Counted from the stretch's first letter, positions 2,137 through 62,762 are shown. The stretch: DNA of 64,000 nucleotides from a bacterium (GCA_037127915.1 JBAXXL010000007.1:27636-91635); one strand, 5' to 3'. Notes: generated by a model not told the origin, from the letters alone. Made by a program: numbers and translations.

Positions 2137-2169
2137 ACTCATCCGCTGACTGCCAGTCATCGGATGAGT
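2137..2169. promoter_or_regulatory. Long palindromic element ACTCATCCGCTGACTGCCAGTCATCGGATGAGT in the 5-prime region of the partial first paralog
   Basis: 16-bp arms with one mismatch. Related elements at 11048..11062, 17667..17699, 22223..22255 and, as a terminator stem, 29169..29195. Confidence 0.5.
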
Positions 2170-2213: not shown

Positions 2214-4241
2214 TTAATCCCTAAGACAACGGACAGAGAACCCATTCTCCTTAATACCGTAGTACCTTACAAGAGCGGAAAGATTATAATTCAGACTCCT
2301 GCCCCAAGCAGTCGTAGTAACGCTCTCAGTAGAGCTCCACCAGTAACCGAAGCCTCCAACATCATTGAAAATACCATTGTGATAGCGATAGCCGCCCGGG
2401 AGAGCTGAAAAGCCACTTTCATTTGTAGCTCCTGTATTAGGATTAGACCATAGACCATCACCAAATTCAATTGTGCCTGTTGCTTTTAATTTTCCTCCGG
2501 CAATATTGTCCCCACCTAAACAGTCGGATAATACTGCCCATTCCGCATAGCTTGGCATATGCCAACCTGCAGGAGCTAAGCCACGCGGGTCATTTACTGC
2601 GTACCAATTGTAAAGTTTGCCGTAAGTAGCACCCATTTCTGGGTCATTATTATAAAAGCACCACGCTCCAGTGGTCAATTTTGACCATTTTAAAGAATCT
2701 CTAACCTCAGGAATTGGAGTTCCATCGCGGTATGTATCAACATCCAAATTACACCCCATCCATATTTGGTTTCCAATTTTAACATCTGGACAAGTCTCAT
2801 AATAAACAGTTTTAGTTGTTACTCTTGCAAAGCATTGATTACTCGGAGTATTCGGAACACGCCATTGATAAGCTAATCCTGTTGCGTTTTGAGTAATTAG
2901 AATCCAATTCGCTCCATTGTCTGTGCTATATTCTATTTTAACTTTTTCTTCAGGTATTACGCCTTCCCAAGTGATTATTGTATCGTTACCTACAGCTAAT
3001 ATTTCACTACCATTCGGTTCGATTAGTTTTAAAGTCTGAATTTTTGCTTTTTTTCCCGAGAAACCACCACTCGCATAATAATATACAGGACATTTATCAT
3101 TCTCTAAAGTGAATTTTGTAAAAGAATACCCGCTATCCGCCGGCAAGTAACTTACAGTTAAGTTTATGCTCTGACCTGAAGTAAGTATAAAATTTGTTGG
3201 TGAAATAGAATACGCAGCATTGGTAGATGTAATATTTGTAACATTGAAATCTGCATTTCTGGCTGTTACGATAACTGTTGTATCTTTATTTATTCCGGGA
3301 TTGGCATTTAAAAATTTAACTGATTTGGGTGAAAATTCTAATTTTGCTATTGAATTATCAGGTTGTTGATAGCTTGTATTTGAGATTAAATTTAATGATG
3401 TTATCTTTACTTCGACATTTGTTATACCAGCTTTGCAGGTAATCCCGCTTTGCCATTCGATTTGGCAGGGAACGCCACCTTGGGCCATCTGCAATAAATT
3501 CAAATAGGTTAACCGCGCTTCATCAATTGATGTTACATTCTCGAAATATTGTCCGCCTGTTTGTAATGCTATGTCTTTTAAACTTTGCGGAGTCGGCATA
3601 TTCAATGTTACTACATAAACAGTTACATTCTGAGCAAGTGCTTCAGAAATTATTTTTGATGTTAGAGGTTCTTGATTGGGTTGCCCATCCGAGAGAAACA
3701 CAATAACTCTTTTATACTTTGCATTTTGAGTAATTAGTAATCCGCCTGCCATAGAATTCAGCATCGCCGCATCATAATCTGTGCCACCACCGGCAAAAAG
3801 AGAATTTGCTTTTTGTAACAAAAGGGTTCTATCAGTTGTAAAATCCTGAATTAGATAGTTTCGAGAATTAAATGCAGTAATGGCACATTCGCTCTTTCCC
3901 AGTGGTAAACATTCAATCCAAGCTTTTGCCGCCGATTTTGCTAAATTCAAATTACCGGCACCCATTGAACCAGAAGCATCCATAACAAGTACACTCGATA
4001 ATGCTATTGGTGGTTTAGGGCTTGGGCAACTCACATTGGTAATAGTTCTCGGCTGTCCATTTTCAGTTATATTAAAATCAGAATTTGAGAGATTGGTGAT
4101 TTGATTTCCAGCGGCATCGAAAGCATAAAGATTTGCTTTGATGGTTGGAAATGCCGAAGCGTCAACATTAAAAACAGATAAACTCTGGCTATATGCTGTA
4201 TAGCAGAGGAAAAATATAATTATGTAGATGATTCTTTTCAT
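2214..4241 (-). CDS. Array paralog 1 (VWA subtype A): signal peptide, N-terminal module, VWA domain (DASGSM MIDAS), Ig-like domains, PNGGE/ITWEG beta-sandwich, C-terminal FISUMP domain (TIGR02145-like)
   Basis: 675-aa ORF. N-terminus MKRIIYIIIFFLCYTAYSQ is a signal peptide. VLVMDASGSM...VIVFLSDGQPN is a VWA/MIDAS signature. The C-terminus IWMGCNLDVD...KLYNWYAVND..GLAP.GWH.PS..EW..L...GG....GKLK.TG....W..PNTGATNESGFSALPGGYR...YWWSS...GFSVRCLRD matches the Fibrobacter succinogenes major paralogous domain pattern. Confidence 0.85.
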   Translation of the reverse strand: MKRIIYIIIFFLCYTAYSQSLSVFNVDASAFPTIKANLYAFDAAGNQITNLSNSDFNITENGQPRTITNVSCPSPKPPIALSSVLVMDASGSMGAGNLNLAKSAAKAWIECLPLGKSECAITAFNSRNYLIQDFTTDRTLLLQKANSLFAGGGTDYDAAMLNSMAGGLLITQNAKYKRVIVFLSDGQPNQEPLTSKIISEALAQNVTVYVVTLNMPTPQSLKDIALQTGGQYFENVTSIDEARLTYLNLLQMAQGGVPCQIEWQSGITCKAGITNVEVKITSLNLISNTSYQQPDNSIAKLEFSPKSVKFLNANPGINKDTTVIVTARNADFNVTNITSTNAAYSISPTNFILTSGQSINLTVSYLPADSGYSFTKFTLENDKCPVYYYASGGFSGKKAKIQTLKLIEPNGSEILAVGNDTIITWEGVIPEEKVKIEYSTDNGANWILITQNATGLAYQWRVPNTPSNQCFARVTTKTVYYETCPDVKIGNQIWMGCNLDVDTYRDGTPIPEVRDSLKWSKLTTGAWCFYNNDPEMGATYGKLYNWYAVNDPRGLAPAGWHMPSYAEWAVLSDCLGGDNIAGGKLKATGTIEFGDGLWSNPNTGATNESGFSALPGGYRYHNGIFNDVGGFGYWWSSTESVTTTAWGRSLNYNLSALVRYYGIKENGFSVRCLRD

Positions 4242-4462
4242 AAAAACCTTTTCTTTTCTTTTAATGCTAGTGCTAAATTATCATAATTTTATATATTAAA
4301 CAAATATTTCTTTATATCTATTTCGGCTAAAGCCGATTAAAACTTTTTTATCTTTTTCCACGACTTAAAAGTCGTGGCAACTAATTTCTTTCTATCTTTT
4401 TCTTCTTCTACTACTCTCTTATCTTCTTCTATTTAAAAACTTTACAAACTTTACGAACTCAT
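4242..4462 (-). repeat. Conserved inter-paralog spacer, copy 1. Read on the minus strand it is: stop codon, (ACTTTRYRA)n short tandem repeats, TCTTC-rich microsatellite, hairpin CCACGACTTAAAAGTCGTGG (4358..4377), hairpin TCGGCTAAAGCCGA (4323..4336), AT-rich promoter region, then the start of the next paralog
   Basis: Near-identical at the nucleotide level to 6533..6741 and 8791..8986 and largely to 11000..11212. Confidence 0.8.
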
Positions 4463-6532: not shown

Positions 6533-6741
6533 AAAACCTTTTCTTTTCTTTTAATGCTAATGCTAAATTATCATAATTTTATATATTAAACAAATATTTC
6601 TTTATATCTATTTCGGCTAAAGCCTATTAAAAACTTTTTTCTATTTTTTCCACGACTTAAAAGTCGTGGCAATTAATTTTTTCTATCTTCTTCTTCTTCT
6701 CTTTATGAACTTTAAAAACTTTATAAACTTTATAAACTAAT
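6533..6741 (-). repeat. Conserved inter-paralog spacer, copy 2 (hairpin CCACGACTTAAAAGTCGTGG at 6650..6669; the second hairpin is disrupted by a point change, AGCCTA)
   Basis: Alignment by eye with 4242..4462. Confidence 0.8.
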
Positions 6742-8790: not shown

Positions 8791-8986
8791 AAAAACTTTT
8801 CGTTTCTTTTAATGCTAGTACTAAATTATCATAATTTTATATATTAAACAAATATTTCTTTATATCTATTTCGGCTAAAGCCGATTAAAACTTTCTTTTC
8901 TTTATCCACGACTTAAAAGTCGTGGATATTGATTTCTTTCTATCTTCTTCTTCTCTTTAAAAACTTTATGAACTTTACAAACTGAT
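8791..8986 (-). repeat. Conserved inter-paralog spacer, copy 3 (hairpins at 8871..8884 and 8906..8925)
   Basis: Alignment by eye with 4242..4462. Confidence 0.8.
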
Positions 8987-10999: not shown

Positions 11000-11212
11000 A
11001 AGATTTCTTTCAATTTCTTTTTAACTTATTGCTTATTTTCTTTTTTTACTCATCCGATGAGTTGATATTTCTTTGCTTATTTATTTCGGCTAAAGCCGAT
11101 TAAAACTTTCAATAATTTTCCACGACTTAAAAGTCGTGGCTACTAATAATTTTAAATTTTCTTCTTATCTTCTTATCTTCTTCTCTTTATGAACTTTCCG
11201 AACTTTATGAAC
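11000..11212 (-). repeat. Conserved inter-paralog spacer, copy 4 (hairpins at 11087..11100 and 11120..11139, plus an ACTCATCCGATGAGT palindrome at 11048..11062)
   Basis: Contains all three conserved hairpin/palindrome elements. Confidence 0.8.
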
Positions 11213-17666: not shown

Positions 17667-17699
17667 ACTCATCGGATGACTCGAAGTCATCGGATGAGT
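17667..17699. promoter_or_regulatory. Palindromic element ACTCATCGGATGACT-cga-AGTCATCGGATGAGT upstream of paralog 7
   Basis: 15-bp arms, one mismatch; 55-87 nt upstream of the 17612 start codon. Confidence 0.5.
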
Positions 17700-55202: not shown

Positions 55203-55223
55203 AATATATTTAAGGTTTTTGGT

Positions 55224-55625
55224 ATGAAAAAAATAAGAGTAGCAACGATTATTATACTATTTTTCAATGCTGTTTCAGGACTTGTTGGCGGGTTAGGTTT
55301 AATACTTGACCCTAGTGGAAAAATAATGCAAATGCCGATAGAATGGTTAGCTCCTACCCCATTTACAAATTTCTTGATTCCAGGCATTATCCTATTTTTG
55401 TTTATTGGCTTATTCAGTTTATTAGTTGCTATATTGACCATAATAAAATCAAAATACTATCAATATTTAATTATTTTTGAAGGGATTATTTTATTTATCT
55501 GGTTGTCAGTAGAAATAATAATGCTGAAACTATTCTTTGCACCGCTCCATTTACCGTACTATTTGGTCGCATTTGCCTTATTGAATCTAGGATATTTATT
55601 AAATAAAAAGAGACTCGCCAATTAA
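55224..55625 (+). CDS. Small integral membrane protein of unknown function
   Basis: 133 aa, 4 predicted TM segments. Confidence 0.4.
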   Translation: MKKIRVATIIILFFNAVSGLVGGLGLILDPSGKIMQMPIEWLAPTPFTNFLIPGIILFLFIGLFSLLVAILTIIKSKYYQYLIIFEGIILFIWLSVEIIMLKLFFAPLHLPYYLVAFALLNLGYLLNKKRLAN

Positions 55626-55636
55626 ACGAGTCTCTT
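55601..55636. terminator. Intrinsic terminator hairpin between convergent genes (AGAGACTCG-ccaattaaa-CGAGTCTCT), effective mainly for the minus-strand gene 55686..56147
   Basis: 9-bp perfect stem. On the minus strand it is followed by TTTTTATTT; on the plus strand it is preceded by AAATAAAA. Confidence 0.6.
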
Positions 55637-55685
55637 ATAAATCTTCATTAACAATTAATAATTAACCATTAATAATTATTGTTGG

Positions 55686-56147
55686 TTACTTTTTCTTGAA
55701 GGCAGAAAATACACTTGCAAATCCTTCGAAAAAATTCCCAATTCTTACAAATGGGCTAGTAACTTTATTAGCAACATCTCTCATTGTATCCTGCACATTG
55801 TGAAATGCATTTGAGCAACGCTCGGCATTTTCTTTAAACTTTGAAGCCATATTTTTGATTTCATAAGTTGCATAACGTAGATTTGTCATAGAATCTACAG
55901 CGATGTCCTTTAAATCGGCAATACCGGCCGCAATACTATTAATTCGTTTTGAAAAGATGTTGATTTCGTCAATCACTTCGCTAGTTTTTTCACGCATAAT
56001 GCGCATATCTTTAGATAATTTATCTATACTCAAACTCACATCGGATAAAAACTTTTTTATCGAAGTTGTTAAAATTATTAGATAAACAGCTAATGCTATA
56101 AACATTATTAACGCTATTATAACTAAGATTTCATGTAGTAATTCCAT
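55686..56147 (-). CDS. DUF948-like membrane-anchored coiled-coil stress protein
   Basis: N-terminal TM helix, then a long helical region (LSDVSLSIDKLSKDMRIMREKTSEVIDEINIFSKRINSIAAGIADLKD). Confidence 0.45.
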   Translation of the reverse strand: MELLHEILVIIALIMFIALAVYLIILTTSIKKFLSDVSLSIDKLSKDMRIMREKTSEVIDEINIFSKRINSIAAGIADLKDIAVDSMTNLRYATYEIKNMASKFKENAERCSNAFHNVQDTMRDVANKVTSPFVRIGNFFEGFASVFSAFKKK

Positions 56148-56202
56148 TTAAGCTCCCGTGGCAATAATATATTTATTGTAGTTAGTTAGCAACTTAATAA
56201 GC

Positions 56203-56514
56203 TTATTTCTTCTTCAATTCTGCTTCGACTTCTTCTTCAAATTGTCCTTCATTCTTTTTGAATGAGTCAATAATTGATTTTGTTTTTGTACTAACAGTAT
56301 CAACTACTTTAGCCGCTGTAGCTTCTACTTTTTTCTCGACATCGGCAACGTAATCAGTTGCTTTGCCATAAACTTCGCCACTTTTTGTGCTAATATCTTT
56401 TCTTAATTCAGCACCGGATTTTGGTGCCAATAATAAAGCTGTGATTGCTCCGGCAACTCCGCCGATAAATGTTCCCAAAGCTAATCCTTTCAAATAATCT
56501 TTTTGTTCAGCCAT
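56203..56514 (-). CDS. YtxH-domain protein
   Basis: GLALGTFIGGVAGAITALLLAPKSGAELRKDI matches the YtxH Gly-zipper plus APKSG motif. Confidence 0.6.
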   Translation of the reverse strand: MAEQKDYLKGLALGTFIGGVAGAITALLLAPKSGAELRKDISTKSGEVYGKATDYVADVEKKVEATAAKVVDTVSTKTKSIIDSFKKNEGQFEEEVEAELKKK

Positions 56515-56594
56515 CTCAATATTCCTTTTTAGTTAAACTAATTAGTTATTTATTTTTAATGCATTCGCATATAAAATTCTTTTACATATTCATT

Positions 56595-57044
56595 CTAAAG
56601 TTCTCGAACATCTAAAATCATTTCGCATATTTCTCGAACGGCACCTTCGCCGCCTTTGGAATTACAAACATAATCTACAACCTTTTTCAAAGGCTCAATC
56701 GCATTTGCAGGAACCGCACTAAAACCGGCAAGCTTCAAAGCTTCCAAATCATTAACATCATCGCCTATATAGGCTATTTCATCAGTCGAAATATTCATTT
56801 TCTGTGATATTTCTTTAAGTGCTACATCTTTTTCCCAACAGCCAATATAAATATGTTGTACATTAAGTACTTCTGCTCTTTTTTTAGCTATTTTCGAATC
56901 CTTACTTGTTATAAATGCCGTTTGTATTCCGTATTTGTGTAGTAAAGTAATACCCATTCCGTCATAAGCTGAGAACTTTTTTAGGGCTTCACCCTCGGCG
57001 GAGTAGTACATACTGCCATCGGTAAGTGTTCCGTCAACGTCCAT
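56595..57044 (-). CDS. kdsC: 3-deoxy-D-manno-octulosonate 8-phosphate phosphatase (HAD family)
   Basis: MDVDGTLTDG HAD motif I, GDDVNDLEALKLAGFSAVPANA motif III, 149 aa. The N-terminus appears short relative to typical KdsC, and upstream in-frame sequence (NIKDKLKRIKLFA) looks KdsC-like but lacks a canonical start codon before the next stop. Confidence 0.7.
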   Translation of the reverse strand: MDVDGTLTDGSMYYSAEGEALKKFSAYDGMGITLLHKYGIQTAFITSKDSKIAKKRAEVLNVQHIYIGCWEKDVALKEISQKMNISTDEIAYIGDDVNDLEALKLAGFSAVPANAIEPLKKVVDYVCNSKGGEGAVREICEMILDVREL

Positions 57045-57153
57045 TGCAAAAAGCTTTATTCTTTTTAGCTTATCTTTGATATTTTCTACCCTATAATTTT
57101 GTAATTTTGTAGTTATAATTAGAAGTTTATTTATACAAAATATTGCATTCGAT

Positions 57154-57990
57154 ATGATTAATTACGTAAAAATAGCATTAAATGTTGCAGAAGAAGATTA
57201 CGAAAAAGCCTACTATGTCCTAACTGATTATGATTTCTGCGGAATTGAAGAAGGTTTCGATTTATTATCTATAACATTTACAGAAGAGTATTTTACTGAA
57301 GAATTGAAAACACAATTATTAGATGAATTGAGTAAGTTGATTGAAGATTTCACGGTTAAAGAAATAGAAATAATTGAAGATAAAAACTGGAACGAAGAAT
57401 GGGAAAAGAATCTTGTTCCATTTAAGGTAAATGAGCGTATCGCCATTACCCCTTCCGCACGGGCAGACGAAATTGACGCTCCGATAAAGCTCCTCATAAA
57501 TCCTAAAATGTCATTCGGTACCGGAGAGCACGCGACAACCCGATTAGTTGCCACATTGATGGACGGGCTGGTCCAAAAAGACAGCTTTTGGATTGATGCA
57601 GGAACAGGAACGGGCGTTTTGGGTATTTTAGCAGTGAAACTTGGCGCTAAATCCTGCTATGCTTTCGATAATGACCCTTGGTCGGTGGATAATTCAATTG
57701 AAAATGCTGAAATGAACGGCGTAGCTGATAAAATGGATATAGAAATCGGCAATATTGACACAATGGAGCTACCACCTGCCGATGGTATCGCCGCTAATCT
57801 ATTCTATCACTTAGTTAAAGCCGCTCTGCCTAAATTCCGCAAGGCGTTGGAAATCTCCAAAGGCGATTTATTAATCTCCGGCATTATGGTTCACGACGCA
57901 AAATCAATCATCGAAACAGCCGAAGGTTTGGGCTTCAAAATTCAAAATTCCATTACAGAAAATGAATGGATTGCTTTTCACTTCAGATAA
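57154..57990 (+). CDS. prmA: Ribosomal protein L11 methyltransferase
   Basis: INPKMSFGTGEHATTRL and DAGTGTGVLGILA motifs; 278 aa. Confidence 0.8.
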   Translation: MINYVKIALNVAEEDYEKAYYVLTDYDFCGIEEGFDLLSITFTEEYFTEELKTQLLDELSKLIEDFTVKEIEIIEDKNWNEEWEKNLVPFKVNERIAITPSARADEIDAPIKLLINPKMSFGTGEHATTRLVATLMDGLVQKDSFWIDAGTGTGVLGILAVKLGAKSCYAFDNDPWSVDNSIENAEMNGVADKMDIEIGNIDTMELPPADGIAANLFYHLVKAALPKFRKALEISKGDLLISGIMVHDAKSIIETAEGLGFKIQNSITENEWIAFHFR

Positions 57991-58020
57991 TGATTAATTA
58001 TAAATTATTAATTATTAATG

Positions 58021-58420
58021 GGATGAAGACGGATGTCATTACCGCGGAAGCGGTAATCCATCTTCTTGAATAGCCACGACCTCCGGTAGAGACGCGATTT
58101 ATCGCGTCTAATGTGCCGAAATTGGAGACGCGATAAATCGCTTCTCTACAATCCAACGCACTTTTTTTCCCGTAATTCGTTATTGATAACGCGCCCGGCC
58201 AAGGCAAAAAAATGACCTCCGGCGGGGAGGTCAGAATTTTCTATTACCATCATCCTGTAAATCCTCTAATCCTGTATATCCAGATTCAGACAAGAAGGCG
58301 GACAGGTCACGACCTATCCCTACGGTTAAAAATTCTCTGCGTCTTCGCGTCTTTGCGGTGAATTCTTCTTCCGTGCTACGTCTTGTTCTCCTATACCCCA
58401 AAACCCTACACCCCAAACCC
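58021..58420. ncRNA. GC-rich, hairpin-dense intergenic block; candidate structured RNA or regulatory region, class undetermined
   Basis: Roughly 50 percent GC against a background near 33 percent. It contains ATTACCGC-GGAA-GCGGTAAT (8-bp stem, GNRA-type loop), AGACGCGAT-TT-ATCGCGTCT, the related GAGACGCGATAAATCGCTTCTC, and GACCTCC-GGCGG-GGAGGTC. It lies between the ends of convergent genes and no ORF of significance covers it. Confidence 0.3.
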
Positions 58421-58421
58421 T

Positions 58422-58447
58422 AAAAAAAAGGGGCTTAATTGCCCCTA
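58422..58447 (-). terminator. Intrinsic terminator of the ptsN-like gene
   Basis: On the minus strand GGGGCAATTAAGCCCC is followed by TTTTTTTT. Confidence 0.75.
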
Positions 58448-58897
58448 TGCATCATATTCTTTAATCAAATTGTATGCGGTAGTTTCGTCTTTTGCCGCTA
58501 TCAGTTTTTCTTTGAACTCAGCATTATTCATCAGGTGCGATATCCGGCTGAGTAGCTTTAAGTGCATACCGACATTGTTTTCCCTACCCAGTATCAAAGA
58601 CACCAAGTTCACGGGTACATTGTCCAAGGATTGAGAGTCAATTGGTTCAGCCAACACACCAACTGCAATTATTGTGTCCTCAACTGCGCCTGTTTTTGCG
58701 TGCGGCAGAGCAACACCAAAGCCAATACCGGTACTCATTATCTCCTCGCGATGAATAATTTCTTTGAGTGCCCGGTCTTTATCTTTTAATTTATCTGAAT
58801 TATTAGCAAGATCAACCATTACATTCAATAAGTCATCCTTATCTTTTGCAATAAGACCGACTTTGATTGAATTTATGTTGATGATTTCTTGTAACAT
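58445..58897 (-). CDS. ptsN: PTS EIIA-type (fructose/nitrogen family) regulatory protein, PtsN-like
   Basis: GIGFGVALPHAK with the phosphorylatable His; 150 aa. Confidence 0.7.
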   Translation of the reverse strand: MLQEIININSIKVGLIAKDKDDLLNVMVDLANNSDKLKDKDRALKEIIHREEIMSTGIGFGVALPHAKTGAVEDTIIAVGVLAEPIDSQSLDNVPVNLVSLILGRENNVGMHLKLLSRISHLMNNAEFKEKLIAAKDETTAYNLIKEYDA

Positions 58898-58922
58898 ACT
58901 AATTTCCTATTTTTTAAAAATT

Positions 58923-61427
58923 CTAATTTTCTAATTTCCATTTGTGAATCAGTTCTGCGTACTTTTTCGCTAACGATTCAACCGATTCAGCTGAAAAACT
59001 TTCAGCAAATATACTGAATATCCCCTTTTCTTGGTCTGGTAATATCAATACATTTTCCGATTCACTTTCAAATATCTTAATTCCGTCAATAAGTTCGCGC
59101 TTCATATCATTACTGTAATCCATTGCTTTACGCATTACCGCACCTTTTTTATACCACGGAACGCTTACATAAATCAATTTGTTATGCGTCTGCGGTAAAC
59201 TATCATCGATTTGCGAGATTGTTAATCCCGAAGTAGCTAACATTTCTAAGATTTTGCCTATCGAGAACATAGCATCCGATGCGAATAAAAAGTCAGTAAA
59301 CACGTATCCGCCATAAATACCGCCAACAAACAAATAGTTGTCATCCAACGTGATATCCATCATAGCGGAATGGTTGTTTTTAACACGAGTAACCTCGACA
59401 TTATAATCTTTTGCTATTATATCAATAGTGTTAGGCGCGGCAACCGATACCGCAATCTTATACGGCTCTCTATGACGATTGGTTTCCAAAAATAATTTAG
59501 TAATAATGGAGAGCATTCTATTTTGTGAATACCATCTCCCCCGCTCATCAATAATGGAAATTTTTTCCGCACCGCGAAGTATCGAAAATCCAAGTTCATA
59601 TCCAAGCGATGTCATAATTTTGCCACTTGGGTCTTCGTCCAAATTGCCTTCTGTAGGATCGGGATGAAATTTATATGCGTCGATGTAATTATTCAATGAC
59701 AATGCATTTACATTTAGTTCACCCAAAACGCTTGGGAAAATTGTCGAAGCCATTCCATAGGAGTAATCTATCAATAATTTAAAATTTCCAGAGCGAACGC
59801 GCTCAATATCCAAAGCTTCAAGATATCTATTTCTATATACTTCAATTGACCGGTCAGAATAAACGAGGCTTCCAATTTCGTTAAAGTTAACTCTCTTTAT
59901 ATCTTCACCAAAGAAGTAACGCTCAATTTTTTTTGTCGTCGATATAGGAATATCCCTGCCATCTTTAGAAAATATTATAATATCTGTACAATTTGGTAAA
60001 CGCAGTGATGGTCGTACGTGAATTCCGCCTTCGAATTTTCCTCTTTGTAATTCCTGACGTGTTTGTGGAATCGGAATTTCCTGAATATCGGAAACATTAA
60101 CTCCTACTGAGGCTAACCCGCAAGTAATAGCGCGTTTTATAATCCTTGAAACAAGGTCAGGAGCACGACTGGCGCAGATAGTAGTATTTTTACCGAAAGT
60201 CAATCCTAAAGCTGAGCCTAACTTAGCCGCAAATTCAGGATTAATTTCTATATTAGATATACCTGTGATACGGGCACCCGAGAATAGCTCGCGTTGCCAT
60301 TTATCTTCTTGCACTAGTGAAGTTGACAGAGTGGCACCATCTTCTATCCGTTTATTAGGCCAAAGTTTTATATTCGAATTAATAACAGCGTTTTTTCCTA
60401 CTTTGCAATTCTCTGCTATAAATACATTATCAGAAACAAATACTTCTGAACCGATTATGCAGTTGGAGCAGATTACATCGGAGTTCAATTCAGCAAAATC
60501 ATCAATTTGGACATTGTCCCAAAGTGTTGTTCTATTGAGTTTAACACCATTGCCAATAATAACTTTATCACCGATTATACAATTGGTAATTACTGCGCCC
60601 TCGCCTATCTTTGTGTTTTTACCAATATGATTATTTTCATTAAAAATTGCGGATGCGGCTATTTCGGAAGTCCTTCCCATAACAGAAAGTTCGTTGCAAT
60701 CAGGATGGTGTAGAGTACATTTGCCATTCAAGGCATCTAATTGGCTTTGCTGATATTCGTTCAAATTACCGATATCACGCCAATAACCATCGGCTATATA
60801 ACCGTATAATGGCAAGCCTTTTCTTAACATATCCGGAAATAAATCCTGACTGAAATCATATTCCTTTTGGTAAGGAATCAAATCCATTATTTCCGGTTCA
60901 AATATATAAATTCCGGTATTAATCGTATCGCTGAAAACTTGTCCCCAAGATGGCTTCTCTAAAAAGCGAGAAATTTTCCCTTCGGGTTCGGTCATTACAA
61001 TACCGTATTGAAGCGGTGTTTCAACGCGCGTTAAAAGTATGGTTGCCATAGCGCCTTTTTCTATATGGAATGCCAAGGCTTTTTCAATATCAAAATCAGT
61101 GAGAACGTCGCCGCTGATAACAATAAATCTTTCCTTCAAACCTTCAGCGGCATTACGAACAGCACCTGCTGTACCGTAATCTTCTTCTGCAATGACATAT
61201 TTCATATCTATGCCATGCTCGACACCCTTGCCAAAATGATTTATTATAGTATCAGGTTGAAAATAAAGCAGTGATGTAACATCAACTATATTATGGTGTT
61301 TTAACAAGTAAACTATATGCTCCATCATTGGAGCGTTCATAATGGGAACCATTGGTTTGGGAATACTCATTGTAAGTGGCCTTAAGCGTGTACCGAAACC
61401 GCCTGCCATAATAACTGCTTTTTTCAT
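58923..61427 (-). CDS. Bifunctional sugar-1-phosphate nucleotidyltransferase (GDP-mannose pyrophosphorylase-like, with left-handed beta-helix) and phosphohexomutase-like domain
   Basis: MKKAVIMAGGFGTRLRPLT nucleotidyltransferase motif, hexapeptide-repeat region, and a C-terminal alpha-D-phosphohexomutase-like region (GGIHVRPS resembles the active-site loop); 834 aa. Confidence 0.65.
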   Translation of the reverse strand: MKKAVIMAGGFGTRLRPLTMSIPKPMVPIMNAPMMEHIVYLLKHHNIVDVTSLLYFQPDTIINHFGKGVEHGIDMKYVIAEEDYGTAGAVRNAAEGLKERFIVISGDVLTDFDIEKALAFHIEKGAMATILLTRVETPLQYGIVMTEPEGKISRFLEKPSWGQVFSDTINTGIYIFEPEIMDLIPYQKEYDFSQDLFPDMLRKGLPLYGYIADGYWRDIGNLNEYQQSQLDALNGKCTLHHPDCNELSVMGRTSEIAASAIFNENNHIGKNTKIGEGAVITNCIIGDKVIIGNGVKLNRTTLWDNVQIDDFAELNSDVICSNCIIGSEVFVSDNVFIAENCKVGKNAVINSNIKLWPNKRIEDGATLSTSLVQEDKWQRELFSGARITGISNIEINPEFAAKLGSALGLTFGKNTTICASRAPDLVSRIIKRAITCGLASVGVNVSDIQEIPIPQTRQELQRGKFEGGIHVRPSLRLPNCTDIIIFSKDGRDIPISTTKKIERYFFGEDIKRVNFNEIGSLVYSDRSIEVYRNRYLEALDIERVRSGNFKLLIDYSYGMASTIFPSVLGELNVNALSLNNYIDAYKFHPDPTEGNLDEDPSGKIMTSLGYELGFSILRGAEKISIIDERGRWYSQNRMLSIITKLFLETNRHREPYKIAVSVAAPNTIDIIAKDYNVEVTRVKNNHSAMMDITLDDNYLFVGGIYGGYVFTDFLFASDAMFSIGKILEMLATSGLTISQIDDSLPQTHNKLIYVSVPWYKKGAVMRKAMDYSNDMKRELIDGIKIFESESENVLILPDQEKGIFSIFAESFSAESVESLAKKYAELIHKWKLEN

Positions 61428-61448
61428 ACTATTCTCTATATTAGTAGT

Positions 61449-62762
61449 TTATATTTTTTTCGATATATAATAGTAATGACTTCCGAAGCGTTCGAAAGCC
61501 GCTTTTTCTAGCTCTTCCCTATAAGACGGATGAGCAATATCAATTAGTGCTTTAGCTCGTTTTTGTAATGATTTACCATATAAGTATGCTATTCCGTATT
61601 CGGTTACAATATAATGAACCTCAGGGCGGGTAGTAACAACACCTGCGCCGACAGTCAAGGTTGGCACAATCTTGCTGATACCTTTTAACGTCGAAGACGG
61701 CATTGCGATTATTGGTTTCCCACCAATACTTTTCGCGGCACCGCTGATAAAATCAACCTGTCCACCAACACCGGAATAATGTAATGTACCTATTGAATCG
61801 GCACAAACCTGTCCGGTCAAATCAATTTGTAATGCTGAATTTATTGCTGTTACTTTCGGGTTTTTGGCAATGTTGATAATTGAATTAGTATAATCTACAG
61901 CCATCATCGCTACCATAGGGTTATCATCAACAAAATCGTAAAGTGCTTGAGAACCCATAAGAAATGATGCAACTATTCTGCGTTTGTCAATCATTTTCTC
62001 TTCACCGGTGATAATTCCTTTTTCTACTAACGGAATCAATCCATCAGAAAACATTTCTGTATGAACACCTAAACGTTTGTGATTGCCTAATTCGGCTAAT
62101 ACAGCATTTGGTATCGCCCCTATTCCCATTTGTAAAGTTGCGCCATCTTCAACTAATGATGCTACCTGGTGCCCGATTTTTGTGTCTATTTCAGTGATAC
62201 AAGGTGTGTGTGCTTCGTAAAGCGGTTCGTCGTGTTCGACAAAAATATCGAAATAATCGAGTGGCATCATAGCGTCGCCCCAAGCTTTAGGAACATATTT
62301 ATTAATTACTGCTATTACAATTTTGGCTTTTTCTATTGCGGCACGTGTAGCTTCTACAGAGGTTCCTAACGATACCCATCCGTGTTGGTTCGGTTTCGAA
62401 ATCTGAACCAAAGCTACGTCAACCGGACAAATATCTTGATATATTAAAGTTGCTGTTTCAGATAAAAACACAGGAATATAATCAGCGCGGCCTGCTTGAG
62501 TTGCCTTTCTTACATTGCCGCCTACAAAAAATGATTCCAAATTAAAAATATTCTCGAATTCCGGTTCTACATACTGTGCATAGCCTTCTGTGTGCAGATG
62601 CTGGATTGTAACATCTTCAATTTCTCCCCGTCTCGCGCGTTCACACATTGCATTTACTAAAATTTGTGGGAAACACGCTACAGCGTGGATATGAACTCGA
62701 TCACCGCTTTTTATAGCTTTAACTGCTTCTTCTGCTGAAACCGGTTTATACGTTTTTTTCAT
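61449..62762 (-). CDS. Acetyl-CoA hydrolase/transferase family protein (4-hydroxybutyrate/succinyl-CoA:acetate CoA-transferase-like)
   Basis: 437 aa with AcetylCoA hydrolase/transferase N- and C-terminal signatures (GDRVHIHAVACFPQILVNAM; GIGAIPNAVLAEL; the EXG Glu region). Confidence 0.7.
   Translation of the reverse strand: MKKTYKPVSAEEAVKAIKSGDRVHIHAVACFPQILVNAMCERARRGEIEDVTIQHLHTEGYAQYVEPEFENIFNLESFFVGGNVRKATQAGRADYIPVFLSETATLIYQDICPVDVALVQISKPNQHGWVSLGTSVEATRAAIEKAKIVIAVINKYVPKAWGDAMMPLDYFDIFVEHDEPLYEAHTPCITEIDTKIGHQVASLVEDGATLQMGIGAIPNAVLAELGNHKRLGVHTEMFSDGLIPLVEKGIITGEEKMIDKRRIVASFLMGSQALYDFVDDNPMVAMMAVDYTNSIINIAKNPKVTAINSALQIDLTGQVCADSIGTLHYSGVGGQVDFISGAAKSIGGKPIIAMPSSTLKGISKIVPTLTVGAGVVTTRPEVHYIVTEYGIAYLYGKSLQKRAKALIDIAHPSYREELEKAAFERFGSHYYYISKKI

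Follow-up and report, generated by a model that had tools for sequence, protein, structure and literature searches.

The palindromic repeats termed REPs (repetitive extragenic palindromes) are typically extragenic and lie between convergent or co-directional open reading frames (ORFs), near their 3' ends (PMC3733652). GTAG REPs consist of an unpaired GTAG, a stem of 5-13 bp and a loop that is usually 2-3 nt long (TY), and often form head-to-head dimers with the GTAG tags outside; CGTC REPs have a CGTC, TGTC or CCTC tag, a stem of 8-9 bp that nearly always starts with A-T, a 4-5-nt loop and a 3-nt tail that is mostly CCA (PMC3733652). GTAG REPs are associated with transposases, whereas CGTC REPs are not (PMC3733652). 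Both types occur together in an intergenic block of the DNA analysed here, a 64,000-nt stretch of a bacterial contig (GCA_037127915.1, JBAXXL010000007.1:27636-91635) that we refer to as the window. A preliminary description, made from the window alone, had drawn attention to positions 58021-58420 as a GC-rich, structured region that could encode a structured non-coding RNA (ncRNA) or be the remnant of a foreign element. Our analysis indicates that the block is probably a mosaic comparable to the bacterial interspersed mosaic elements (BIMEs), made up of REPs and companion short repeats that have built up in the neutral space separating two convergent genes. Its REP components are a CGTC-1-type element, a head-to-head GTAG dimer, a GTAG singlet and a truncated fourth hairpin, and these are accompanied by heptamer arrays, an AGGAT module and a C-rich tract.

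The GTAG dimer is a 24-nt inverted repeat, with arms that are 96% complementary and separated by a 16-nt spacer; folded as DNA, the 64-nt dimer has an energy of -24.5 kcal/mol (z = -9.6). It had been noticed earlier as two perfect GACGCGAT..ATCGC palindromes 45 bp apart. Both palindromes are present, at 58089-58109 and 58125-58145, with starts that are 36 nt apart rather than 45, and the first copy is perfect whereas the second is not (ATCGCTTC). The GACGCGAT motif is confined to the block within the window, 0.02 matches being expected by chance. A second GTAG REP is present as a singlet, and its consensus-like form, GTAGGGAYAGGTCGYGACCTGTCC, is found in 6 viral contigs. The GTAG tags are unpaired in the folds of all these units (58086-58089 on the plus strand, 58146-58149 and 58320-58323 on the minus strand). 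In its tag, its stem and loop, its inverted pairing and its extragenic position between the stop codons of prmA and of a gene for a phosphotransferase system (PTS) EIIA-2 protein, the dimer agrees with the published definition of GTAG REPs.

These features are shared with the REPs of E. coli and the REPINs (REP doublets forming hairpins) of Pseudomonas, together with their REP-associated tyrosine transposases (RAYTs; PMC3733652, PMC3116915): an unpaired GTAG, a perfect 9-bp stem, a 2-nt TY loop, a head-to-head inverted doublet that can fold as one long hairpin, a position between convergent genes, and presence or absence between close strains. A further likeness is that the same REP adjoins or sits inside genes for RAYT-like Y1 transposases in other genomes. 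The spacer, at 16 nt, is short in comparison. A more substantial difference concerns distribution, as the identical 24-mer is found here in at least 10 phyla and in viral contigs, whereas REPIN-RAYT systems are described as being for the most part inherited vertically (bioRxiv 10.1101/2022.05.22.493013).

The element at 58034-58060 shows every published feature of the CGTC-1 REPs, which correspond to dRS3 in Neisseria and RPE-6 in Rickettsia (PMC3733652): the TGTC/CGTC tag, an 8-bp stem starting with A-T, a 4-nt loop and a CCA tail. The hairpin within it, ATTACCGC-GGAA-GCGGTAAT, had been described beforehand as having a GNRA-type loop and is indeed present at 58038-58057; as DNA it folds with -7.9 kcal/mol (z -4.9). 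The exact ATTACCGC variant is found in 105 metagenome stretches, mostly soil contigs of about 0.54 GC and unknown taxonomy, usually as one unit of a head-to-head heterodimer, and its copies have C before GTC in 99 of 108 cases and a CCA tail in 105 of 108. A related and commoner form, ATTCCCGC, occurs in 109 viral stretches and, as ATTCCCGC-GAAA-GCGGGAAT, in a relative (L003, PrmA 95% identical). The window element differs from the commonest form by a compensated C-G to A-T change in the stem (ATTACCGC/GCGGTAAT). It is also a singlet, whereas the family consists predominantly of head-to-head dimers; singlets are allowed in the family (PMC3733652), so this state is compatible with membership. 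The host is an uncultured bacterium. Its PrmA homologues, about 50% identical, are labelled Kapabacteria, Bacteroidota or Chlorobi group, and its nearest named relatives are therefore placed in those groups; the lineage is distant from the named bacteria of these groups and outside the 2013 survey of CGTC REPs.

Comparison with relatives shows that the whole block is present in some genomes and absent from others. In agreement with the preliminary description, it lies between convergent genes, prmA on the plus strand and the EIIA-2 gene on the minus strand, in a gap of 454 nt. Three independent assemblies of a close relative (L129, L130 and L131; EIIA protein 97% identical) keep this convergent pair and do not have the block, their intergenic region being the 20-nt sequence cactttaaaTAAaaaaaggggcttaatcgcccCTAtgc with one shared terminator hairpin. 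In a blastn alignment with L129, window segments 55207-57990 (93.6%) and 58423-61898 (88.5%) abut, so that the 432 nt at 57991-58422 are an insertion/deletion difference; the block is thus where it had been reported, with natural boundaries slightly wider than 58021-58420. Two other assemblies (L001, L002) have a filled allele identical to that of the window, and the same sequence is found in a metagenome-assembled genome (MAG; GCA_964645665.1, contig CAZYBI010000007.1). The junctions read agaTAA/tgatt...aaaccc/TAAaaaaaagggg, with slashes at the edges of the block; TAA is present at both, and a 3-nt target duplication is possible though ambiguous. The inverted-repeat search and the junction sequence reveal no terminal inverted repeats. 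The predicted EIIA terminator lies outside the insertion and is a conserved anchor, being kept in L129, L132 and L135.

Other relatives have different sequence at this site. In L003, prmA is followed by a 1.2-kb non-coding mosaic and another downstream gene, and three modules of this mosaic are common to the window block, in another order and orientation. L008 has the left edge of the block alone, the neighbours at the prmA junction are different in L005, L132 and L135, and in L005 the block is replaced by other sequence. In several relatives (84-95% protein identity), synteny is broken precisely at the prmA/EIIA 3'-3' junction, which makes the gap with the repeats a breakpoint of gene order. 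The junction marks a hotspot for insertion and rearrangement among strains. In its region after prmA, L003 carries at 3928-4414 a tandem array of 4.2 copies of a 115-nt unit (94% matches), which is itself composed of GTAATTC repeats, AATGGTC/AATTGTC heptamers and a CGTC-like hairpin.

The clean edges of this difference, the TAA at both junctions with its possible 3-nt target duplication, and the invariance of the filled allele in three assemblies could also be read as a single insertion, after the prmA stop codon, of one composite non-autonomous transposon resembling a miniature inverted-repeat transposable element (MITE). MITEs are likewise short, non-coding, structured and insertion-polymorphic. 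We regard such an origin as improbable: terminal inverted repeats are lacking, the block and its right half have no further copy in plasmids, in phages or in the ~84 kb of this genome that were available (the window and 10 kb on each side, L377 and L379), and the 61-aa ORF has no homologue. The sharing of the left edge alone with L008 and of reordered modules with L003 fits modular accretion better than one insertion.

The composition of the block had been described as GC-rich, and its GC content at 58021-58420 is 0.478 compared with a window mean of 0.348; values of 0.43-0.46 are likewise seen in the EIIA gene and in the adjoining 3' half of prmA. Its structure is far beyond chance, the fold of the plus strand at 57985-58250 giving z = -7.2 against shuffled sequences, and that of the minus strand being only marginally better than shuffles (z -2.0). 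The hairpin GACCTCC-GGCGG-GGAGGTC noted earlier is present at 58214-58232. There is no credible ORF, as had been stated: the two longest, of 61 and 69 aa, have TTG starts and no Pfam match, the former has no homologue among 5.8 billion proteins, and the short ORFs inside the block are spurious.

As to the proposal of a structured ncRNA, Rfam 15 gives no matches at gathering thresholds in the whole window, and an ncRNA of a kind described in Rfam is not supported. A permissive scan of the region returns chance hairpins alone, miRNA precursors with 18-24 bits against cut-offs of 67-85 (the best, a plant miRNA hairpin, has 23.5 bits against 67), and a scan for tRNA and tmRNA finds none. The block is missing from L129, L130 and L131, which keep both flanking genes, and other sequence takes its place in L003 and L005; this excludes a conserved ncRNA gene. 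The other proposal, a remnant of a foreign element, comes close: the block is a lineage-specific insertion of short mobile or repeated modules that recur in many genomes.

A more specific RNA gene can be envisaged on the minus strand, where a small RNA might start near 58420, directly downstream of the EIIA terminator, end at the terminator at 58233-58206 and expose its AGGAT motifs as a CsrB-like sponge for a protein or for ribosomes. The canonical hairpin with T7 inside the block would serve as its terminator, and the four AGGAT motifs have a regular 9-nt period that is conserved in the genomic copies and on a cyanobacterial plasmid. We nevertheless hold this to be very unlikely, given the lack of an Rfam match, the marginal fold of this strand, the failure to identify a minus-strand promoter there, the absence of the region from close relatives, and the presence of the AGGAT module at other loci without an accompanying terminator. 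A role selected by the host, in which the hairpins insulate the convergent genes as terminators or 3'-end mRNA stabilisers and are kept as useful rather than selfish sequences, also seems very unlikely to be the explanation. REPs between convergent genes have been reported as RNA stabilisers or terminators (PMC3733652), and a scan of 900 nt around the block finds 5 sites resembling terminators, compared with 1.2 expected. A relative, however, manages with a single shared 20-nt terminator, and the modules occur elsewhere in unrelated contexts and orientations; because the EIIA terminator is retained outside the block, the block adds nothing that EIIA needs.

Several observations weigh against a BIME-like mosaic of REPs. 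A tblastn search finds no RAYT homologue in the ~84 kb of this genome or in relatives. One dimer of the GAGACGCGAT REP is present in the same ~84 kb, compared with hundreds per genome in Pseudomonas and E. coli, high copy number being a classical property of REPs; other GTAG-tagged hairpins, at window 11120-11143 and L377 18003-18069, have a different sequence. About 150 nt of the block (58150-58245) have no identified repeat relative. Finally, no outgroup polarises the direction of the insertion/deletion, as the more distant relatives have a different synteny.

The linkage of this REP to transposases is seen in other genomes. In a Halpernia MAG (L116), a RAYT-like gene at 1598-2236 encodes a 186-aa protein with the HUH motif PNHTHGI and contains the REP in frame, translated as VETRFIASL; a second, inverted REP copy lies 55 nt 3' of its stop codon. 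RAYT-like homologues adjoin or overlap the REP in L126, L072 and L128 and are at most 4.5 kb away in L054 and L080, and four of the six genes overlap the REP or sit within 150 nt of it. The proteins from L116, L126 and L080 match NCBIfam NF047646 (REP-associated tyrosine transposase) with E values of 1e-12 to 1e-16 and scores below the equivalog cut-off, and those from L126 and L080 are above the Pfam Y1_Tnp cut-off, with L116 just below. RAYT-like genes are found in 6 of the 120 listed GTAG-REP genome stretches and in none of the other 256 stretches compared (376 in total); the CGTC and viral sets contain none, and the restriction of these genes to the GTAG set fits the published contrast between GTAG and CGTC REPs (PMC3733652). 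Group 4 RAYTs are common in Cyanobacteria, Chlorobia and Caldilineae, and their flanking 16-mers are only moderately repeated (Bertels et al. 2017, PMC5581495). The RAYT-like proteins found here may belong to this group, which would fit the low copy numbers.

RAYT-like genes contain REP-derived sequence in frame at a constant place in the protein, just past the HUH motif; the type of REP varies from gene to gene. We know of no description of REPs within their own transposase gene. Besides L116, the gene in L126 (3044-3861) has three degenerate copies, that in L128 (3-551) an inverted pair read as VETS...DAINRVST, that in L080 (6995-7678) VETLQYVETLQCNVST, and that in L054 (5971-6603) VGAGLDPAHD...VGAGLAPAHD. 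The frame in L128, a Peribacteria MAG, contains several in-frame stops and would be a pseudogene or use a non-standard code.

By the published REP/RAYT model, the GTAG hairpins would be substrates of a Y1 HUH RAYT acting in trans, which would recognise the hairpin and the unpaired GTAG on single-stranded DNA and copy REP doublets into extragenic sites; the CGTC REPs would be spread by an unknown enzyme. From this analogy we infer that a RAYT may have mobilised the GTAG units in this genome. Once present, the hairpins would occupy the 3' untranslated region of prmA, the block itself being no gene, and might incidentally stabilise or terminate transcripts or promote rearrangement. It is plausible that prmA transcripts are affected by the terminator-like site at 58213-58233 as well as by the 3' hairpins.

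The GTAG REP of the window is widely distributed. The exact 24-mer, GTAGRGACGCGATTTATCGCGTCY, is found in at least 120 stretches of a species-representative genome collection, where by our own arithmetic about 0.02 chance matches are expected. Among the matches listed, the hosts belong to Nostocales, Oscillatoriales, Bacteroidota, Chlorobiota, Ignavibacteria, Chloroflexota, Omnitrophota, Cloacimonadota, Patescibacteria, Abditibacteriia, Spirochaetia and Gammaproteobacteria, and the 24-mer spans at least 10 phyla; it is also found in 19 IMG/VR viral contigs and on plasmid alpha of Nostoc PCC 7120. Its flanks are unrelated between loci. The copies are singlets or inverted dimers, and 29 of 168 lie no more than 140 nt from a partner. 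The first stem pair is A-T in 147 copies and G-C in 21, with no mixed pairs. Other modules of the block are not enriched at the 120 cross-phylum REP loci, which shows that the modules do not always travel together.

Variations on this REP are seen at individual loci. One viral contig (L151, IMG/VR 3300027728_001619) has 10 exact copies of the 24-nt REP at 860-1881, with a period of ~448 nt; a search of viral contigs for TTCACCGCAAAGACGCGAAGACGCA gave no match. At Nostocales loci such as L037, L041, L078, L084 and L103, the REP lies inside a larger conserved element, ...cagttcagataagCCCAAAACCCTcat-[REP]-tcaaagaccaa..ctacaccaataacccttaac, which suggests that it is nested in a genus-specific MITE. 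Many REPs (L017, L061, L062, L063, L087, L109, L117) have beside them partial tandem 'stutter' copies of the 3' arm, for example repeats of ccctCGCGTCTccctCGCGTCT and cacacacaGCGTCT, and AAAGACGCGAAGACGCAG at window 58339-58357 looks like the same phenomenon. Such copies suggest slippage or abortive copying at the hairpin. A literature search by sequence strings returned nothing relevant, and the supplements of PMC3733652 contain no sequences by which the exact GTAG family number could be assigned.

Features of the block and its surroundings are collected in Table 1.

Table 1. Flanking genes, boundaries and repeat modules at the prmA/EIIA junction (window coordinates)
Feature	Position	Strand	Basis
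prmA	57154-57990	+	Pfam PrmA, E 7e-49
AT-rich heptamer array TAATTAT x4.6, running into AATGGGATGAAGACGGA (also AATGGGATGAAGA)	57988-58033	+	TRF
Whole presence/absence block, 432 nt, prmA stop codon to A-run of EIIA terminator	57991-58422	.	blastn against L129
CGTC-1-type REP: tag TGTC, 8-bp stem ATTACCGC/GCGGTAAT, loop GGAA, tail CCA	58034-58060	+	sequence, fold
Module TCCATCTTCTTGAATAGCCAC, ending in truncated half ATAGCCACGAC (58070-58080) of hairpin CCACGACTT-TT-AAGTCGTGG	58057-58080	+	match to L003
Head-to-head (GTAG-outside) REP dimer, REPIN-like	58086-58149	.	inverted repeat, folds
Left GTAG unit: GTAG AGACGCGAT TT ATCGCGTCT, 9-bp stem	58086-58109	+	
Dimer spacer, 16 nt	58110-58125		
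Right GTAG unit, one stem mismatch, ending CTAC	58126-58149	-	
Terminator-like hairpin TGACCTCC-CCGCC-GGAGGTCA then T7 (weaker on plus strand)	58206-58240	-	consensus scan, predicted
AGGAT module: TTGTCTGAATC + 4x (n)AGGAT, 9-nt period	58246-58296	-	alignment, TRF period 9
Second GTAG REP, singlet: GTAG GGATAGGTC GT GACCTGTCC, 9-bp stem including one G-T pair	58300-58323	-	tagged-hairpin scan, fold
Module GGAAGAAGAATTCACCGCAAAGACGCGAAGACGCA with tandem 8-nt repeat of REP-arm AGACGCGA	58338-58372	-	L003 match, TRF period 8
C-rich tract: ACCCCAA heptamer x4.1, or 15-mer x2.3	58390-58422	+	TRF
Intrinsic terminator of EIIA gene (hairpin + T8)	58429-58446	-	consensus match; predicted activity
PTS EIIA-2 gene	58445-58897	-	Pfam, E 3.5e-35

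In a self-comparison within the window, recurrence of block sequence is limited to the AT-heptamer module, which is found again at 55647-55678 and also follows prmA in L008 and occurs several times in L003. The TCCATCTTCTTGAATAGCCAC module matches L003 4702-4722 at 20 of 21 positions, with the full hairpin next to it there, and the GGAAGAAGAATTCACCGCAAAGACGCGAAGACGCA module aligns in opposite orientation with L003 4549-4583, at 94% identity over 35 nt. The AGGAT module is present once more in this genome (L377 20607-20660), and an intergenic region of the Dolichospermum plasmid pAfl69 holds it three times (91% over 44 nt). The terminator-like hairpin, at 58233-58213 on the minus strand, folds as DNA with -8.1 kcal/mol (z -4.1), and no second copy was found among the 120 REP loci searched for modules. 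The phage database gave no match to the block, and plasmid and phage matches do not extend beyond single modules.

The C-rich tract, which the preliminary description had pointed out as a further oddity, is a real tandem array, and its minus strand contains the sole canonical G-quadruplex motif in the 64 kb. A diverged second copy, with 20 identical core positions, lies at L377 20983-21007, within a further mosaic block found in this genome; the tract is therefore another recurring module. The 5' flank of the REP in Nostocales is also C-rich and resembles it. A link to the 'CCCAAAACCCT' 5' flank of the Nostoc REP is conceivable; the words are similar and the orientation relative to GTAG differs.

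The second mosaic block is a 641-nt intergenic region at L377 20396-21036, ~6-7 kb before the window start, between yebC-like and dinB-like genes. It contains AT heptamers, GTAG-type hairpins, the AGGAT module, a CCACGAC hairpin, the C-rich tract and a CGTC-1 REP with a different stem, TGTC-ATTCCCGA-AGCA-TCGGGAAT-CCA (L377 20951-20977). The resemblance is at the level of motifs, by targeted alignment, and a blastn-short comparison of the block with L377 gives nothing significant. The GTAG-tagged hairpins at L377 18003-18069 form a tail-to-tail dimer.

Mosaics of this kind resemble the E. coli BIMEs and the mosaic intergenic regions of Neisseria in their interleaved short repeat families, in having REPs as structured parts and in their strain-variable composition. 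They differ in their companions, which here consist of arrays of heptamers and of an AGGAT 9-mer, together with a C-rich tract. Similar companions are known from cyanobacteria, in which dispersed repeats of 21-27 nt that form hairpins are flanked or hosted by tandem heptamers; the heptamers, termed short tandemly repeated repetitive (STRR) sequences, were reportedly described by Mazel in 1990, and the small dispersed repeats (SDR) are said to have been described by Elhai in 2008. The GTAG REP, the AGGAT module and a GAATTAC-like heptamer are near-identical in Nostocales genomes and plasmids, although the host here is not a cyanobacterium. REPs, REPINs and BIMEs are well known as kinds, and are found here in an uncultured lineage in which they were previously undescribed. 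GTAG- and CGTC-tagged REPs are thereby documented as BIME-like mosaics in a lineage near Kapabacteria, Bacteroidota and the Chlorobi group, and for the window the result is chiefly a clean negative: a conspicuous structured, GC-rich block is repeat DNA and not a new RNA gene.

What is unusual is that many phyla and viral contigs have identical 24-nt REPs, and several companion modules, in common, and that REPs lie in frame within RAYT-like genes. The evidence for a possible pool of very small modules, identical or nearly so in very distant bacteria and in some viral contigs, comprises the cross-phylum GTAG REP, the CGTC-1 variant in metagenomes, the AGGAT array on a Nostocales plasmid and the C-rich-like sequence 5' of the REP in Nostocales. 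The sharing of 24-nt REPs between phyla bears on whether the inheritance of REPs and RAYTs is strictly vertical. As a speculation that we consider rather unlikely, some REP/RAYT-type systems, perhaps of Group 4, might move horizontally from one phylum to another as a travelling kit, possibly carried by phages, that inserts the REP into its own transposase gene. Such transfer would contrast with the prevailing view, in which REPIN-RAYT systems are residents inherited vertically.

Two further repeats of this genome are of note. The hairpin CCACGACTT-TT-AAGTCGTGG, of which the block contains a truncated half, has at least 7 copies in the ~84 kb, mostly between tandem paralogous Fib_succ_major/VWA genes: window 11120-11143, ~8907-8930, ~6651-6674 and ~4359-4382 (converted from L377), L377 20719 and L379 8237. 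A single copy is GTAG-tagged, and for this reason most copies may stem from gene duplication rather than transposition. A palindrome, ACTCATCSGATGA(n)TCATCSGATGAGT, is found in intergenic positions at window 2137-2169, 11048-11062 and 17667-17699, at L377 18113-18147 and at L132 ~3680-3720; its motif has 9 matches in the window, compared with 0.03 expected by chance.

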